Assembly: GCA_963665295.1 (NCBI GenBank)
Contig: OY762209.1
Location: forward strand, 4,416,001 to 4,480,000
Length of the DNA: 64,000 nucleotides
DNA from: Syntrophorhabdaceae bacterium
GTDB lineage: Bacteria > Desulfobacterota > Syntrophorhabdia > Syntrophorhabdales > Syntrophorhabdaceae
Direction: 5' to 3'
Every line of letters starts with the position of its first letter. Positions within the stretch are counted from its first letter, which is position 1. The notes beneath the pieces are model-generated. The model had not been told where the DNA came from. It ran no database searches and saw only the letters and a list, made by a program, of their open reading frames with translations. Below, piece by piece: positions 10,511 to 16,849 of this stretch. The translations under genes were made by a program, and so were the position numbers.

Positions 10511-11059
10511 TCAGTCCGCCTTCAGGATAACCGTTTCATTAAATGCCCTTGTATAGGCATTAATATTCTTCTGAGCGTTTATCCCGAACCTGTTTTTCAC
10601 AGGCTCCTCAAGAGATTCGAGAGGTACCACTCCGGTGGCCTTTACGAGGGCTCCCAGCATAGTGGTATTTGTTATCGGCACCCCAAGCTCTTCCTTGGCG
10701 ATCTTTGTCCCATCCACATAGGCAATATTATGCCCCGGAAACAGCATCATGAGATCTTCAACGGGCTTGTGGGTATTTATGATGACGAATCCGTCTTTCA
10801 AACCTTCCGTGGGGTTAACGGTCCCCAGCAGCGTTGCATCCAGGATGATCACCGCGTCAGGCTTATAGACTTTCGACCTCAGCCTTATCGGTTTATCCGA
10901 CACTCTTAAAAAGGCAAGGACAGGCGCCCCTCTTCTTTCCGGGCCAAAACTCGGGAATGCCTGGGCATATCTGCCTTTCGCGATGGCTGCCTGGGCTATT
11001 ATTTCTGCCGAGGTTACAGCTCCCTGGCCGCCTCTTCCGTGAAATCTCACCTCTATCAT
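10511..11059 (-). CDS. Pyruvate/2-oxoacid:ferredoxin oxidoreductase gamma subunit
   Basis: MIEVRFHGRGGQGAVT...FGPERRGAP, NTTMLGA. ATGA overlap with the cysS stop. Confidence 0.92.
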   Translation of the reverse strand: MIEVRFHGRGGQGAVTSAEIIAQAAIAKGRYAQAFPSFGPERRGAPVLAFLRVSDKPIRLRSKVYKPDAVIILDATLLGTVNPTEGLKDGFVIINTHKPVEDLMMLFPGHNIAYVDGTKIAKEELGVPITNTTMLGALVKATGVVPLESLEEPVKNRFGINAQKNINAYTRAFNETVILKAD

Positions 11060-12519
11060 CTGTCCTCTCCTTTCGTCGTAACTCCACTTTTTATTCTCCA
11101 CTCGGTGCCCTTGGGCGAATCCTGCAAAAGGATTCCTTTCTGAGCGAGAGTATCTCTTATTTCATCCGACTTCTTGTAGTCCTTGTTCTTCCGGGCCTGC
11201 ACCCTTTCTTCGATCATACCCTCAATGGAGGCGGCATCCAGCCCCATACGACTCAGGTGCCTCGTTCTTTCCTTTTCCGAGAACGCGTCCACGTCGTCAA
11301 GCAAAAGACCTATGCCCTGCGCGAGGGTGACAAGAACGTCCCTGGCATAGAGAATGCGTGGGACCCTGCTCTCGTCATGCTCGTCCACCATCCGGTTTAC
11401 CATTTTCGACAGCTCAAAGACCGAACTGAGGGCAAGGGCTGTGTTGAAATCATCATCCATGGCCTCGTAGAACTTCTCCTCCAGTTCACGAGCTGCTCGA
11501 AAAGGCGCCGCTGATGCCTCTTTCCCTTTTCCTGCTTCCCGGGCTCTTTCCAGGGTATAATAGAGTCTCTGGAGCGCGTTATTCGTATCCTCTATCGATT
11601 TATCGGTATAATCAACAGGATTCCTGTAATGAGTCGATAGGAAGAAAAGTCTCAGGACCTCGGGATGATACTCCTTCATGAAGTCCTTTATGAGAAGAAA
11701 ATTGCCGAGAGACTTTGACATCTTTTCCTTCTCGATGTTCACGAATCCGTTGTGGACCCAGTAATTCACGAATCGAACGCCCGTGGCCGCCTCGCTCTGG
11801 GCGCGCTCGTTTTCATGGTGCGGGAAGACAAGGTCTTTCCCTCCCCCGTGTATGTCAAAGGGGGAGCCGAGGTATTTCGTGCTCATCACGGAGCACTCTA
11901 TATGCCATCCCGGTCTGCCTTTACCGAACGACGTCTCCCAGTACGGCTCACCCTCTTTCGAACCCTTCCACAGGGCAAAATCGAGGGGGTTCCTCTTCCT
12001 GTCATCCACATCGACCCGCGCCCCCGCCATCATCTCATCGAGACTCCGGTTGGACAGCCTGCCGTAACCGACAAAGCTTTCTACGGAAAAGTAGACATCG
12101 TCATCAACCCTGTATGCGTGTCCCTTGTCAAGGAGAGTTTCCACGAGACGTATCATATCATCGATATGTTCCGTGGCCCTCGGCTCATAGGTGGGAGTGA
12201 GGATGTTCAAGGCCCCCATATCTTCCTTAAAAGACCTGATATACTTCTCCCCTACTTCCTTCCACGGGACGCCTTCCGTATTCGCCTTCTTCAGTATCTT
12301 ATCGTCGATATCGGTGAAGTTCTTCACGAAGACGACGTCAAGACCTTTCGCCTTGAGATACCGGTAAATCACGTCGAATACGATGGCGCTCCTCGCGTGA
12401 CCGATATGACAATGGTCATAAACGGTTACACCGCATACATAGAGTTTTGCCCTGCCTTCCTCGACGGGTTTGAATTCTTCCTTGTTTCCAGTGAATGTGT
12501 TGTATATTTTTATAGACAT
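11056..12519 (-). CDS. cysS: Cysteinyl-tRNA synthetase
   Basis: CGVTVYDHCHIGH, GRPGWHIEC, FPHHENE, KMSKS. Confidence 0.98.
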   Translation of the reverse strand: MSIKIYNTFTGNKEEFKPVEEGRAKLYVCGVTVYDHCHIGHARSAIVFDVIYRYLKAKGLDVVFVKNFTDIDDKILKKANTEGVPWKEVGEKYIRSFKEDMGALNILTPTYEPRATEHIDDMIRLVETLLDKGHAYRVDDDVYFSVESFVGYGRLSNRSLDEMMAGARVDVDDRKRNPLDFALWKGSKEGEPYWETSFGKGRPGWHIECSVMSTKYLGSPFDIHGGGKDLVFPHHENERAQSEAATGVRFVNYWVHNGFVNIEKEKMSKSLGNFLLIKDFMKEYHPEVLRLFFLSTHYRNPVDYTDKSIEDTNNALQRLYYTLERAREAGKGKEASAAPFRAARELEEKFYEAMDDDFNTALALSSVFELSKMVNRMVDEHDESRVPRILYARDVLVTLAQGIGLLLDDVDAFSEKERTRHLSRMGLDAASIEGMIEERVQARKNKDYKKSDEIRDTLAQKGILLQDSPKGTEWRIKSGVTTKGEDR

Positions 12520-12592
12520 ATGTTGCTATTTTTATCACAACGTGCGCCCCCTTGTCAAAACTTATCTGAGCCTCGGGGCCGGCCTTTTGGAA

Positions 12593-12622
12593 TTGACAAG
12601 GGTCACCTCCTTGAATTATTAT
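12593..12622 (+). promoter_or_regulatory. Putative sigma-70 promoter of the metal-uptake operon
   Basis: TTGACA-N18-TATTAT. Confidence 0.55.
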
Positions 12623-12648
12623 TTGCCCATGAGATCGGAAGGACGCTC

Positions 12649-12963
12649 ATGAGTCTCGTGAGAAGGGAAGCGCACTCCCCTTCGTATGCCGGACGCAGAT
12701 CAACCGCCGGGAAGGTCCTGGCGGTTCTCTTTTGCGTTTGTCTTCTCCTTTCCCTCGGGATGGGCTTTCACCACCATACGGACGGGCTTGAACACCCCGA
12801 TTGCCCAACCTGTGCACTTTCGTCCCTACCGGTAATCGGATCGGCATCCTGCGATTCAGCGCCTTTTTTTGTGGACATCGTGTTTTTGGCGCCCCTCCGG
12901 GATTTCCGTCCTCTTTGTTCTTCCCTCGATTCCACTCATGCCATAAGGGCGCCTCCCGCCTGA
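12649..12963 (+). CDS. DUF2946/CruR-like leader peptide (TM/signal, HHH, CxxC, C-terminal RAPP), 104 aa
   Basis: MSLVRR...VLAVLFCVCLLLSLGMGFHHHTDGLEHPDCPTC...HAIRAPPA*; GGAAGGA before ATG 12649. It is the 3' end of the long shadow ORF 11752..12963. Confidence 0.8.
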   Translation: MSLVRREAHSPSYAGRRSTAGKVLAVLFCVCLLLSLGMGFHHHTDGLEHPDCPTCALSSLPVIGSASCDSAPFFVDIVFLAPLRDFRPLCSSLDSTHAIRAPPA

Positions 12964-13058
12964 CATTCTTCACCCGCACCACAAATCCATAATAAAAGAT
13001 TCCCAACGGAGGAGTATCACCACCGTACGCTCCGCCCTGAATTCGCGAGGAGGCACCA

Positions 13059-14411
13059 ATGCATAAGACGCTTGTCTTTGCCCTTCTCTTCGCGTGTCTC
13101 GGTTATTCAAGTTCATTTGCAGGTAATCTTGAATCGAGGCTGAACGCGATGGAGGAGACCTTAAGGAAGCAACAGGAGACAATCAACGAGCAGCGCAAAA
13201 TGATCGAGGAATTGAAAGGCGAATTGGCAACAGTAAAGAAGCAGGAGACCGCCCCCGCGGTTGCCGATATACCTCCGGGGACCGCGGGTGAGCCGAAGAT
13301 GTCCGGCATATCCGGTCTTTTCGGCGGCGCATGGATGACCAATCCGTATATTTCCTTTGTGTTGAACACCAATTTCTACTCCTCCAGCATCAATGAAAGG
13401 GAACTATCCAACAGGGGAATCCCCGGTTACTCAAACCTGGGTTTCGAGCAGAAGAAAGGGTTCAATATCAGCGAGGGTGAATTATTCCTTTTCGCTCCCG
13501 TGGATCCCTATTTTAATCTCTATGCCAATATACCCTTTACGGAAAGCGGCAGTTCCCTTGAAGAGGCATACTTTATTACCACCTCCCTCCCCGAGGGTTT
13601 GCAGGTAAAGGGAGGTAAATTCAAGAGCAACTTCAGTCGTTTCAATGCGCAGCACCCCCACGCATGGGATTTCGCCGACGCTCCTCTGTCGTACCGGGCC
13701 TTCCTCGGCAACGAAGGTCTCATCGAGAAGGGGGTACAGTTGACCTATCTCCCGGCTCTGCCCTTCTACACTCTCCTCGGAGTGGAAGTGCTCCAGGGGG
13801 AAAACGAAGTCATGTTCAACCAGAACGCCACAGGAGGTCCTCACGCCTTCACCGGGTATTTGAAACAATCCGTTGATCTGGGTGACTATTCCACCCTGCT
13901 TTTCGGCCCCTATGCCGTAGGCGGCCAAACGCGCACCACCACCGTTGCGAACGGTACCTTTCTGATGGGCAATACGCAACTCTATGGGTTTGAAACCGTC
14001 TTCAAATGGAAACCCTCGAAATACAGAAGCCTTATTGTCCAGGGAGAGTACATGATACGCAATCAGGACGGCACCCTTTACGATGCCTCGCCAAACACCG
14101 CCTCCAGTCTTAAGAGGTCCCAGGACGGCGCATACATTCAGGCCCTTTATCAGATCGACAGGTGGAGGTTCGGCGCGCGATACGATCGCCTCGGTCTGTT
14201 CAGGACCGATTACACGCTTGCGGGCGTGGAGCAGAGCTTCGGGCAGGACCCGTGGCGGGCCACTGCCGCAGTCGAGCTGAACCTGAGCGAGTTCTCCCGC
14301 CTGAGGCTTCAGTACAACTACGATCGGTCGGGCGGAGACGGACGGACAAACAACGAGGTCTTTTTGCAGCTTATTCTGGGCATCGGCGCACACGCCGCCC
14401 ATTCATTCTAA
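13059..14411 (+). CDS. Outer-membrane beta-barrel protein of metal (Zn/Mn-type) uptake operons
   Basis: Signal peptide, coiled coil, amphipathic strands, NAQHPHAW, C-terminal GAHAAHSF; lies upstream of a cluster A-I binding protein. Confidence 0.75.
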   Translation: MHKTLVFALLFACLGYSSSFAGNLESRLNAMEETLRKQQETINEQRKMIEELKGELATVKKQETAPAVADIPPGTAGEPKMSGISGLFGGAWMTNPYISFVLNTNFYSSSINERELSNRGIPGYSNLGFEQKKGFNISEGELFLFAPVDPYFNLYANIPFTESGSSLEEAYFITTSLPEGLQVKGGKFKSNFSRFNAQHPHAWDFADAPLSYRAFLGNEGLIEKGVQLTYLPALPFYTLLGVEVLQGENEVMFNQNATGGPHAFTGYLKQSVDLGDYSTLLFGPYAVGGQTRTTTVANGTFLMGNTQLYGFETVFKWKPSKYRSLIVQGEYMIRNQDGTLYDASPNTASSLKRSQDGAYIQALYQIDRWRFGARYDRLGLFRTDYTLAGVEQSFGQDPWRATAAVELNLSEFSRLRLQYNYDRSGGDGRTNNEVFLQLILGIGAHAAHSF

Positions 14412-14423
14412 GGAGACGTCACA

Positions 14424-15308
14424 ATGAAGAAACCAACCATACTGATCTTTCTCATCACATTCCTTTTTGCCTGGCCCGCCTTTGCCGAACTGAACGTGGT
14501 GACCACCCTTCCATGGATAGGGAGTATCGTGAACGATCTGGGCCGGGACAAGGTGAAGGTGACGGTCCTGGTCAAGCCGAGCCAGGATCCCCACATGATC
14601 GAAGCGAAACCGAGCATGATCCTTGCGGCGAGAAGGGCCGATCTCATTATGTACAACGGCCTCGACCTTGAAATAGGCTATCTTCCTATCCTTATCGAGT
14701 CATCACGGAATCCGAAGATTCAGCCGGGCAGGCCGGGTAATTTCGATTGTTCCCGTTTTGTGGCGGCCATCGAGAAGCCCCTCGCCGCCGACAGAAGCCT
14801 GGGGGACGTCCATCCCCTGGGCAACCCCCACTATCATCTTTCGCCCGGGAATATGCGTAATATTGCGGAAGGCATTTCCCGGACCCTGTCCCAATTGGAC
14901 CCCGGAAACGCATCTTTCTACCAGGAAAACGCGTCCGGCTTCCGGAAGAAGCTCGACGAGAGAAGGAAGGAGTGGGGAACAGCGCAATTGCGGGGGAAGA
15001 AATTTGTCAGCTACCACAAGTATTTCGAATACCTTGCACAGGAATACGGGTTCCAGCTTGTGGGATACATCGAAGCCAAGCCGGGTATCCCGCCGTCTCC
15101 CGGCCATATCGAAAGTCTCATTGAACTCGCGAAGGGAACAAAACTGGACGGCATACTTACCACCGCATATTTTCCACGGACAGCTCCCGATTTTCTTGCC
15201 CGAAAAACGGGCCTCAAGGTAATTGTCATTCCCCATGAAGTGGGTGCCACGCCTCAGGCAACGGACTGGTTCAAACTCATGGACCTTGTATTCGCCTCAT
15301 TATCGTAA
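14424..15308 (+). CDS. Metal ABC substrate-binding protein (ZnuA/TroA family)
   Basis: QDPH, YNGLDLE, GDVHPLGNPHY, YH. Confidence 0.92.
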   Translation: MKKPTILIFLITFLFAWPAFAELNVVTTLPWIGSIVNDLGRDKVKVTVLVKPSQDPHMIEAKPSMILAARRADLIMYNGLDLEIGYLPILIESSRNPKIQPGRPGNFDCSRFVAAIEKPLAADRSLGDVHPLGNPHYHLSPGNMRNIAEGISRTLSQLDPGNASFYQENASGFRKKLDERRKEWGTAQLRGKKFVSYHKYFEYLAQEYGFQLVGYIEAKPGIPPSPGHIESLIELAKGTKLDGILTTAYFPRTAPDFLARKTGLKVIVIPHEVGATPQATDWFKLMDLVFASLS

Positions 15309-15319
15309 GGAGACAATGA

Positions 15320-16117
15320 ATGGAAGCGCTACAGTTGCTTATGTATCCCTTTCTCGCCTGCCTCTGCCTGATCCTGATCCACGCCTATTTCGGTATTCAT
15401 GTTCTCGAACGGGGGATCATTTTCGTGGACCTTTCCCTCGCGCAATTCACGGGCCTCGGCATCGCGTGTGCCCTCTATGCCGGGGCCGGCTCGCACGGCC
15501 AGTACCTCTACTCCGCCGCCTTTGCCGTAATGGGCGCCCTTCTCCTTTCTTTCTCCCGCCGCATATCCCGGTTCGTCAATATAGAGGCCTTTATCGGTGT
15601 GCTCTACATCTTCGGTCTCTCCGCGAGCGTCCTCATACTCGACCGCACGCCTCACGGCCTCGAGGAATTGAAGTCCATCTTCAACGGCAACATACTCTGG
15701 GTAAGCGGAGGGGATGTGCTGAAGGCATTCTTTCTTTATGCAGTAATAGGGGCCTTCCATTTCATTTTCAGAAGACGTTTCTTTGCCCTCACAAGGAACG
15801 GGGAACAGTCCGTGCTATGGGAGTTTCTTTTCTTTCTCAGTTTTGCTCTCGTCCTTGTAAGCTCGGTGAAACTTGCAGGGATACTCCAAGTCTTTGCCTT
15901 CCTCGTTATTCCCGCTCTGATAGGAAGGCTTTTCGGCAACGCTCCCGGTAAGGTCCTCATTGGAGGCTGGCTCATCGGAGTCGGGGCAAGCATTTTCGGT
16001 CTTGCAGTCTCTTATCGCCTGGACCTGCCCGCCGCTCCCCTGATTGTTGCCTCCCTCTGTCTGGCCTTCTTCTCTCTTCTGGGAGCAAAGGCGCTCCTTG
16101 CAGGGAAGTCATCATGA
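15320..16117 (+). CDS. Metal ABC permease (ZnuB/ABC-3 family)
   Basis: GIHVLERGIIFVDLSLAQ, FNGNIL, FLVIPA; multiple TM helices. Confidence 0.88.
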   Translation: MEALQLLMYPFLACLCLILIHAYFGIHVLERGIIFVDLSLAQFTGLGIACALYAGAGSHGQYLYSAAFAVMGALLLSFSRRISRFVNIEAFIGVLYIFGLSASVLILDRTPHGLEELKSIFNGNILWVSGGDVLKAFFLYAVIGAFHFIFRRRFFALTRNGEQSVLWEFLFFLSFALVLVSSVKLAGILQVFAFLVIPALIGRLFGNAPGKVLIGGWLIGVGASIFGLAVSYRLDLPAAPLIVASLCLAFFSLLGAKALLAGKSS

Positions 16118-16159
16118 CGCCCTTGGCCACCCCTGGTTCCGTTTCCTCCGGGCCCCTTT

Positions 16160-16849
16160 CTACACCATGAGGTACTTCTTCTTCACATCCTCGTTGGCTT
16201 CAAGCTCGGCAACGGTCCCCTCGAAGCGGATGATCCCCTCGTCGATGACGTAGGCCCTGTCGATCATCCTCAAGGCGGATCTCACGTTCTGCTCGGAGAG
16301 GAGGATGCTGATCCCCGCGTCTTTGAGCTTTACGATCTGCTCCTCCAGGTCCCGGACAATAAGGGGAGCGAGCCCTTCGGTAGGCTCATCGAGGAGAAGG
16401 AGGTCGGGGCTGCTCATGAGGGCCCGGCCTATGGTGAGCATCTGCTGCTCCCCTCCGGAGAGGTTCCCTGCGCGTCTGGTCTTGATGTCGGCGAGAGGGG
16501 GGAATACCTGGTAGACCCGTTCCTTGGTCCACTGGTCGGTCCTTTTGAAGGCGATCTCCAGGTTGTCGTCCACGGAGAGGTCGGCGAATACCCTGCGGTC
16601 ATCGGGCACATACCCCATGCCCGCCCGTACGAGGAGGAAGGGTTTGCGGTGGGTGATATCCTCGTTCTTGAAGGTGATGGTCCCCTCTTTCGGAGGGGTG
16701 AGGCCCATGATACTCCTCATGGTGGTGCTCTTCCCTGCGCCGTTCCTCCCTAAGAGCCCCACTACCTCTCCTTTGGAGACCCTGAGGCTTACATCGAAGA
16801 GTATGTGGCTTAGACCGTAATAGGTGTGAATACTGTTTACATTAAGCAT
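16160..16849 (-). CDS. livF: Liv-type ABC ATPase
   Basis: GRNGAGKS, LSGGEQQ, LLDEPTEGLAP, EQN. Confidence 0.92.
   Translation of the reverse strand: MLNVNSIHTYYGLSHILFDVSLRVSKGEVVGLLGRNGAGKSTTMRSIMGLTPPKEGTITFKNEDITHRKPFLLVRAGMGYVPDDRRVFADLSVDDNLEIAFKRTDQWTKERVYQVFPPLADIKTRRAGNLSGGEQQMLTIGRALMSSPDLLLLDEPTEGLAPLIVRDLEEQIVKLKDAGISILLSEQNVRSALRMIDRAYVIDEGIIRFEGTVAELEANEDVKKKYLMV

Follow-up and report, generated by a model that had tools for sequence, protein, structure and literature searches.

We report a short leader ORF whose last codons are complementary to the following gene's Shine-Dalgarno (SD) sequence, located in a 64-kb stretch of DNA that is referred to here as the window. The SD/anti-SD element formed by positions 12951-12959 and 13045-13054 is real. 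The leader ORF ends in ...AIRAPPA-stop, and GCCTCCCGC at 12951-12959 consists of the last base of Ala101 (GCG), Pro102 (CCT), Pro103 (CCC) and two bases of Ala104 (GCC), with the TGA stop at 12961-12963. With moderate confidence we propose the following mechanism: the leader is CruR-like, a ribosome stalled near its end occupies the anti-SD, metal releases the stall, and the helix between anti-SD and SD then closes. The features on which this proposal builds are, in order along the window:

12593-12622, + strand: sigma-70-like promoter TTGACA-N18-TATTAT ahead of the leader ORF (11/12 consensus matches)
12649-12963, + strand: leader ORF (uORF) of 104 aa, CruR/CutF-like, putative distant DUF2946 relative (translation; homologues)
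12715-12768, + strand: hydrophobic segment, residues 23-40, presumed N-in signal anchor (sequence and alignment, by inspection)
12769-12813, + strand: presumed metal-binding motif HHHTDGLEHPDCPTC, residues 41-55 (conservation)
12814-12945, + strand: 44-residue linker ('ruler') of variable sequence and fixed length (spacing count)
12946-12957, + strand: RAPP arrest codons AGG GCG CCT CCC, predicted stall site (conservation; analogy to CruR, ApdA and ApdP)
12951-12959, + strand: anti-SD arm GCCUCCCGC (sequence; RNAduplex; recoding test)
12964-13038, + strand: C-rich, G-poor, rut-like spacer (C 0.37, G 0.13)
13007-13034, + strand: loop-shortening inner hairpin, CGGAG (13007-13011) with CUCCG (13030-13034), with a second GGAGGAG in its 5' arm
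13045-13054, + strand: SD arm GCGAGGAGGC of the outer-membrane-protein gene (sequence; RNAduplex; ATG at 13059-13061)
13059-14411, + strand: first regulated gene, a 450-aa secreted protein with signal peptide, coiled coil and presumed beta-barrel (outer-membrane protein, OMP)
13081-13094, + strand: competing SD partner inside the OMP coding region, codons 8-12 (folding)
14424-15308, + strand: ZnuA-family periplasmic metal-binding protein (PF01297 at 2e-49)
15320-16117, + strand: ABC-3 family permease (PF00950 at 2e-23)

The leader peptide has a conserved architecture. By inspection, Arg/Lys-rich residues 5-22 precede the hydrophobic residues 23-40, which are followed by a Cys/His motif of the pattern HHHxDxxxHxDCxxC. 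In an alignment of 28 sequences, H41, H43, H49, C52 and C55 of this motif are invariant, as are R100, P102 and P103 at the C-terminus, and H42 and D45 are kept in at least 90%. The linker between CxxC and RxPP is conserved in length and without conservation in sequence (70 ORFs and the 28-sequence alignment, respectively); the distance is 43-47 aa in 70/70 leader ORFs, being 44 residues in 22 of them, as in the window leader, and 45 in 39. The second position of RxPP is mostly Ala (57 of the 70 ORFs; Gly in 7, Pro and Ser in 3 each), and the tail after RxPP is a single amino acid in 47/70.

A word-based homologue search with the 104-aa leader returned no relatives, and an exhaustive HMMER search identified 31 at E<=0.001. 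For the wider comparison, relatives of the downstream 450-aa protein served as anchors, and the best 80 of the 198 found supplied the loci. In 69/80 of these, a small ORF with the leader's architecture sits directly upstream of the OMP gene. In three further loci the leader's two motifs are in different frames, and in one the leader is cut by the contig end, with RGPPA-stop still visible. A leader-type ORF was not found in the upstream DNA of four loci, one of which has only 301 nt, and three come without any upstream DNA. The spacer from leader to OMP gene measures 95 nt in the window and has a median of 93 nt (range 36-264) across loci. A search of the 64-kb window for other credible RAPP-type leaders found none. 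We treat the leader promoter as a consensus match only, because one such site was found against a mean of 0.7 in shuffled sequence. Two other candidates at the locus were discarded: an intrinsic terminator in the spacer, where no T run comes after the inner hairpin and a terminator scan found none, and a sub-threshold Rfam match to DnaX on the opposite strand, which was taken as chance.

As judged from its sequence, the closest family of the leader is CruR/CutF (DUF2946-like), of which it appears to be a distant relative. Pfam and NCBIfam scans of the 104-aa peptide gave nothing above threshold, and the window peptide does not match PF11162 (DUF2946) even at E<=10. PF11162 does weakly match 18 of 28 relatives scanned singly (best E 4e-4, below the gathering score). 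We have filed the leader as a distant, sub-threshold branch of CruR/CutF because its relatives match PF11162 weakly and the window peptide does not. The traits of the CruR/CutF type are present, namely the Cys/His motif, a C-terminal RAPP near the stop, the spacing of about 45 residues, the first position in the operon and, by inspection, an N-terminal signal/TM segment. The leader also carries the R-A/G-P-P core with invariant Arg of the RAPP type (ApdA/ApdP class).

CruR (Bp2923, DUF2946/PF11162) is the first gene of a copper-uptake operon in Bordetella pertussis (Roy et al. 2022, PMC9426467). As described there, it carries a signal for export, a CXXC motif and, 45 residues after this, RAPP at the C-terminus (DUF2946 spacing 45 +/- 1-2); the RAPP stall keeps the operon on, copper relieves the stall, and the output is Rho-dependent termination. 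In a later study (EMBO J 2025, PMC12992588), toeprinting of CruR in the PURE system placed its two Pro codons in the P and A sites of the stalled ribosome, and RAPP/RGPP caused stalling in many sequence contexts. The same P/A-site geometry is described for the structures of ApdA and ApdP (Morici 2024, PMC10951233). Our leader resembles CruR in being the small first ORF of a metal-uptake operon with an export/TM segment, CxxC, RAPP 45 (here 44) residues further on and a long intergenic spacer, and, in our proposal, in a RAPP stall that leaves the downstream genes on until metal relieves it. It differs in its sensor (HHHxDxxxHxDCxxC), in its sub-threshold Pfam match, in its cargo (OMP, ZnuA and ABC-3 here, a TonB-dependent transporter and PepSY in CruR), in the proposed output (SD masking by the arrest codons instead of Rho termination) and in its hosts, which are Nitrospirota, delta-proteobacterial lineages, Omnitrophota and Acidobacteriota.

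CutF of Rhodobacter capsulatus is another DUF2946 leader (Ozturk et al. 2023, PMC9973294; preprint bioRxiv 10.1101/2025.02.05.636593). In the presence of copper the ribosome stalls at its proline motif, and the stem-loop by which the SD of cutO is shielded is melted by this ribosome. CutF shares with the present locus a DUF2946-like leader and, in our proposal, the C-terminal proline stall and the SD-shielding stem opened by the stalled ribosome. It differs in its CxxxC and PPP motifs, in that copper induces the stall rather than relieving it, and in that it controls a detoxifying oxidase.

The earlier note on this DNA had called the logic of the arrangement SecM/MifM-like. SecM, MifM and VemP have a C-terminal arrest near the stop (RAGP in SecM), their stall prevents an SD-sequestering stem and thereby keeps the next gene on, and they are released by an event acting on the emerged nascent chain. 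However, they monitor Sec or YidC, control secA, yidC2 or secDF2, lack a metal motif and have no sequence relation to our leader, for which CruR/CutF is the closest family. Membership in the SecM/MifM group was rejected, and the label dropped, because the cargo (OMP, ZnuA, ABC-3) is neither Sec nor YidC. Most likely, the leader senses metal and not secretion activity. ApdA, ApdP and ApcA share the RAPP core with it (Sakiyama 2021, PMC7897499; Morici 2024, PMC10951233), and differ in lying upstream of Sec components.

By analogy with CruR, the proposed mechanism would run as follows. The N-terminal hydrophobic segment would bring the nascent leader chain to the membrane, and the ribosome would stall with Arg100-Ala101-Pro102 on the P-site tRNA and Pro103-tRNA in the A site. 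The predicted P site is the Pro102 codon at 12952-12954 and the predicted A site the Pro103 codon at 12955-12957; these two Pro codons and their neighbours (12951-12959) would double as the anti-SD of the next gene. The anti-SD thus lies exactly where a stalled ribosome would sit, since CruR stalls with its Pro codons in the P and A sites. While stalled, the ribosome would block the long-range helix with the SD at 13045-13054 and leave the uptake genes translatable. Binding of metal, most likely zinc, to the His/Cys motif, which is 44-45 residues from the arrest point, would release the arrest, termination would follow two codons on, the helix would close, and uptake would be switched off. Both the stall and its position are predicted from the analogy, as are the metal response and its direction, which follow the CruR precedent, and the helix would presumably limit translation in vivo.

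The kinship with CruR also suggests a different output, in which the stall shields a rut region, release leads to Rho-dependent termination, and the anti-SD is secondary or a by-product. This mechanism was shown for CruR (PMC9426467), and the base composition of the locus is compatible with it: within the final 90 nt of the leader, C is at least 1.5 times as frequent as G in 57/65 loci (mean C 0.29, G 0.15), and the window spacer has C 0.37 against G 0.13. Because the spacer and the 3' part of the leader are C-rich and G-poor, a Rho route is possible, alone or together with SD masking, and both outputs could act jointly. However, the C-richness may merely mirror a linker rich in Ser, Pro, Leu and Phe, the spacer itself is C-rich in just 25/65 loci, and a Rho-type output leaves unexplained the CCU bias, the covarying flank and the dedicated post-stop anti-SDs described below. 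We consider Rho termination as the main output to be unlikely, and return to the proposal that the arrest codons mask the SD.

In the window itself, the pairing is exactly that described in the earlier note. The sequence and the ORF translation confirm the Ala-Pro-Pro-Ala codons at 12951-12959, and RNAduplex returns nine pairs along the 5' arm, a single bulged A in the opposite arm (13045-13054, the SD of the ATG at 13059) and two further pairs, at -21.9 kcal/mol. The inner CGGAG...CUCCG hairpin that shortens the loop was likewise recovered, as the MFE fold of 12930-13075 holds both the SD/anti-SD helix and this hairpin. Compared with 293 other 15-mers of leader and spacer, the arrest 15-mer ranks first as partner for the SD region, and the native RAPP codons stand at the weighted quantile 0.007 of all synonymous recodings (-21.9 kcal/mol against an expected -12.7).

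An obvious objection is chance, as Pro-Pro codons are inherently complementary to an SD of the GGNGG type (CCNCC against GGNGG), in which case the window SD would be governed by a local hairpin with the coding region or by nothing. The folding data lend this objection some weight. The MFE of the whole region (-33.6 kcal/mol) is unexceptional, with z = -1.44 and 18/200 shuffles as stable, and the folding of the SD/anti-SD helix in the window is context-dependent. The probability that the SD is paired with 12946-12963 is 0.83 in the stretch 12930-13075 and 0.80 in 12560-13260, but about zero in 12880-13100 and 12850-13130 and 0.11 in 12649-13200. The competitor is a local hairpin (13044-13094; -20.7 kcal/mol, z -2.2) in which the SD pairs with codons 8-12 of the OMP gene, the third strongest of its kind among 65 loci. 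With the footprint 12940-12969 masked, the SD is largely free in a fold ending at 13075 (P paired 0.46) but sits in the local coding hairpin with P 0.98 when 12930-13100 is folded. Since the local hairpin survives footprint masking, stalling by itself may be insufficient to open the SD completely at this locus. In L001 and L002, the closest two relatives, folding does not predict this hairpin, however (cds mass 0.00).

Among the relatives, the pairing recurs in excess of expectation. Five of the 69 loci (L028, L031, L046, L073 and L078) were left out of the fold statistics because their OMP start codon could not be placed. Native arrest codons pair with the SD at -13.3 kcal/mol against -10.5 for synonymous recodings (Wilcoxon 3e-7); they fall in the best 5% of recodings in 21/65 loci and above the recoding median in 16/65. 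Pairing is likewise stronger with the SD of the same locus than with SDs swapped in from elsewhere in the set (-12.5 against -11.1 kcal/mol; none of 5000 permutations as good). In a scan for the best 12-mer partner of the SD, from 150 nt upstream of the first Pro codon (Pro1) to the SD, the partner fell in the arrest codons in 29/65 loci, on the stop or immediately 3' of it in 13/65 and elsewhere in 23/65. In 47/65 loci, where about 8 are expected, the best partner is inside the stall zone, which spans -8 to +27 relative to the P-site codon.

The arms of the post-stop class start 12-13 nt from the P-site codon, for example UAA-CUCUUUUCCAG with UUGGAAAGGAG and UAG-CUCCUUUUCAA with UUGAAAAGGAG. 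On the mRNA, a stalled ribosome covers roughly -12 to +15 nt. By analogy with the CruR stall, these post-stop anti-SDs would lie at the mRNA channel entrance of a ribosome stalled on RAP|P. Partition functions are neutral or speak against selection: pairing of the SD core to the arrest 15-mer exceeds P>0.5 in 28/65 loci in narrow context, and the dominant SD partner lies inside the footprint in 37/65 in wider context. By partner position, a predicted SD-sequestering helix within reach of the stalled ribosome is found in 42-47 of 65 loci, and is context-dependent in the window, where it also has a competing hairpin. The hosts of loci with the pairing include Nitrospirota, several delta-proteobacterial orders, Omnitrophota and Acidobacteriota lineages. 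The helix measures 11 bp in locus L047, from the culturable Geobacter argillaceus.

Covariation adds to this picture. It was followed in 32 loci chosen for CCUCC and GGAGG, a subset whose core pairs are invariant by construction because it was selected on these two sequences. In 22/32 loci, against a shuffle mean of 12.5, the wobble base of the codon preceding Pro-Pro can pair with the nucleotide 3' of GGAGG, and all four Watson-Crick types occur. After removal of near-duplicates the flanking pair is present in 18/28, which exceeds the 11.9 of GC-stratified shuffles (P 0.007; slid controls not significant), and the second flanking pair, at 12/28 against 9.9 in GC-stratified shuffles, is not significant (P 0.10); these P values are indicative and not exact, because the loci are related and the subset used for flanks and pair count was selected. 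A structure-pair count (count_structure_pairs) over the 32 stretches, each ending 4 nt after GGAGG and scored on a structure that we had preset, which favours that structure, found 69.4% of cells paired, where shuffles gave 61.8 +/- 1.4, and covariation scoring 0.173, where shuffles gave 0.081; none of 500 shuffles reached either value, and all six slid registers score below the true one. When 14 natural stretches were aligned with MAFFT, RNAalifold predicted 0 pairs; the SD columns are out of register in this alignment because the SD-to-ATG spacing varies. The covariation that the earlier note named as a check is hence borne out for one flanking pair, and neither for the second flank nor in the RNAalifold consensus.

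Taken across the family, the comparative sequence data favour selection for pairing between SD and arrest codons. Chance complementarity can point to the context-dependent folds with their strong local hairpin, to the unexceptional stability of the region, to the lack of an RNAalifold consensus and to the lack of association between CCU and GGAGG (see below). It is at odds with the recoding quantile of the window, with codon bias and covariation throughout the family, with the concentration of best partners at the stall site and with the lack of a predicted local hairpin in the closest relatives, and we regard it as rather improbable. The helix is not universal, as the arrest codons are the best partner in 29/65 loci. 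The view of the earlier note that the stall covers the anti-SD is thus strengthened by the class of the leader, the stall geometry and the codon and covariation data, and weakened by the competing local hairpin and by this limited share of loci.

The codon bias resides in Pro1. This codon is CCU in 43/70 loci, as compared to 21-22% CCU among the other Pro codons of the same loci, and the second Pro codon has no CCU bias in the 70 loci. The bias might stem from a decoding or tRNA requirement of the arrest and not from RNA pairing, given that the biased codon is the P-site codon and that CCU is equally frequent with and without a GGAGG-type SD (28/45 with, 7/13 without; Fisher 0.75, no association). 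Yet at Pro1 CCU is preferred over CCC (43 against 11) despite CCC being commoner in the background (517 against 342). In the usual bacterial tRNA sets, the tRNAs that read CCU also read CCC, and a decoding requirement would leave the flank covariation unexplained; we consider it very unlikely as the source of the bias. Hardly credible is a stable membrane metal-binding protein (chaperone or sensor) with RAPPA as a mature C-terminal signal and no role in cis, which would accord with the TM segment and the conserved His/Cys motif, but not with a linker kept in length and not in sequence, with RxPP one residue from the stop in 47/70 ORFs, with an ORF that is always first in the operon, or with CruR and CutF being short-lived and cis-acting (PMC9426467, PMC9973294).

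The genes downstream of the leader point to the metal. The 450-aa OMP lacks a Pfam family and, by sequence, a solved relative, and some of its relatives carry precomputed PF07642 or PF00593 matches. From the 65 loci with a placed OMP start, 22 were picked by hand; a ZnuA-family gene follows the OMP gene in all 22, and the next ORF is ABC-3 in 18/21. Three His positions of the ZnuA-family protein are presumably zinc ligands, and manganese-type binding proteins have Glu at the third ligand position. The best NCBIfam match of the ZnuA-family protein is AztC, a zinc protein, below the cut-off. In alignment with the zinc-type Synechocystis ZnuA (2ov1), the His is kept in each of the motifs DPH, NPH and xxH. 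Because the protein resembles zinc-type proteins in its AztC match and its His pattern, zinc is most likely the metal that is sensed and imported. The most specific version of our proposal, which we offer as a possibility with considerable reservation, is a zinc-sensing arrest leader whose P- and A-site codons are the anti-SD of the uptake operon, combining arrest and read-out in four codons, with the anti-SD of related lineages shifted by a few bases to a place right after the stop. If true, it would be the first translational-arrest leader that responds to zinc.

Parts of this scheme are already in print. Metal-sensing DUF2946 leaders with stall-dependent control, including the SD-shielding stem of CutF, are described in the papers cited above. 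Our search of the full-text literature, with several supplements outside its scope, found neither a His-rich clade ahead of an OMP/ZnuA/ABC-3 operon, nor arrest codons that themselves serve as anti-SD, nor codon-level or covariation evidence for such a helix. The words 'hairpin' and 'Shine' are absent from PMC9426467 and 'zinc', 'ZnuA' and 'Nitrospir' from PMC9973294; the main text of PMC12992588 does not contain 'zinc', 'ZnuA', 'Shine-Dalgarno' or 'codon usage'. Supplementary file 8 of PMC12992588 is a catalogue of RAPP/RGPP uORFs, and a catalogue only; in it, RAPP/CxxC leaders stand ahead of annotated zinc-regulated outer-membrane receptors of similar size. Since this catalogue contains such leaders, the link to zinc is already implicit in public annotation.

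Leaders of the CruR/CutF kind are recent discoveries that so far concern two proteobacteria and copper. The locus described here would extend them to an unstudied clade found in anaerobic lineages and located ahead of a ZnuA-type importer, and suggests a metal other than copper. It also offers a compact read-out in which the arrest codons mask the following gene's ribosome-binding site, and which predicts that uptake should become deregulated when a single proline codon is changed silently. For ApcA, ApdA and ApdP, SD-sequestering hairpins could not be predicted (Sakiyama 2021, PMC7897499); if our proposal is true, the same trick may explain other RAPP leaders without a predictable hairpin. 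The combination of RxPP encoded with CCU-CC and a complementary SD provides a signature by which other genes can be searched.

The true start of the leader, the 104-aa ORF with the His/Cys motif and the RAPPA-stop end, is the ATG at position 12649, downstream of a promoter-like site. The list of ORFs in the window also includes a 403-aa ORF (11752-12963) that shares the frame of the leader, and it is listed because upstream of the leader this frame continues without a stop codon, on the strand opposite to cysS (minus strand, 11056-12519). At the downstream gene for the secreted, presumed outer-membrane protein, the copy in the protein set has 420 aa and covers 93% of the 450-aa reading from 13059, so the gene caller probably took the internal Met31 (ATG 13149) as the start codon and thereby lost the signal peptide (region 13059-13148). 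The 450-aa reading is covered in full (100%) by relatives with lengths of 448-472 aa.

Leader and spacer contain further elements that could pair:

12702-12726, inside the leader ORF (codons 18-26): terminator-like hairpin of 11 pairs, 7 of them G-C, followed by CTCTTTTGCG

13008-13015, within the inner hairpin of the spacer: second GGAGGAG

13030-13036, within the same hairpin: second CUCCGCC

Together with the anti-SD in the RAPP codons (segment 1) and the SD of the downstream gene (segment 4), the second GGAGGAG (segment 2) and the second CUCCGCC (segment 3) could in principle form an attenuator-like arrangement, in which segments pair either as 1:4 and 2:3 or as 1:2 and 3:4. The terminator-like hairpin may be due to chance, as the terminator scan returned two sites as compared to a shuffle mean of 1.0. 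On the minus strand, Rfam matched the DnaX frameshift element weakly at 12699-12753 (19.8 bits, E 0.09); this score is below the gathering score of 35 and the match is taken as chance.

In 31 of the 65 loci, the SD region paired with early signal-peptide codons with a probability above 0.5 when the region from -24 to +42 around the start of the outer-membrane protein gene was folded alone. This pairing may stem from base composition, through CU-rich Leu and Phe codons, or it may constitute a second layer of control.

At three loci (L013, L061, L079), about 100-400 nt upstream of the match to the outer-membrane protein, the leader is divided between reading frames, one with its His/Cys motif and another with its RxPP end, and these split leaders represent either MAG assembly errors or decayed leaders. 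Locus L044 is without a leader and has in its place, upstream of the outer-membrane protein gene, a 250-aa ORF (L044:2075-2827), the C-terminal part of which presumably resembles FeoA.

Within 15320-16849 of the window, no ABC ATPase gene follows the ABC-3 family permease gene, and the next gene is:

16160-16849, minus strand: convergent gene with an ABC_tran domain

The same-strand neighbour after the permease gene is variable or absent in the 13 other loci examined.
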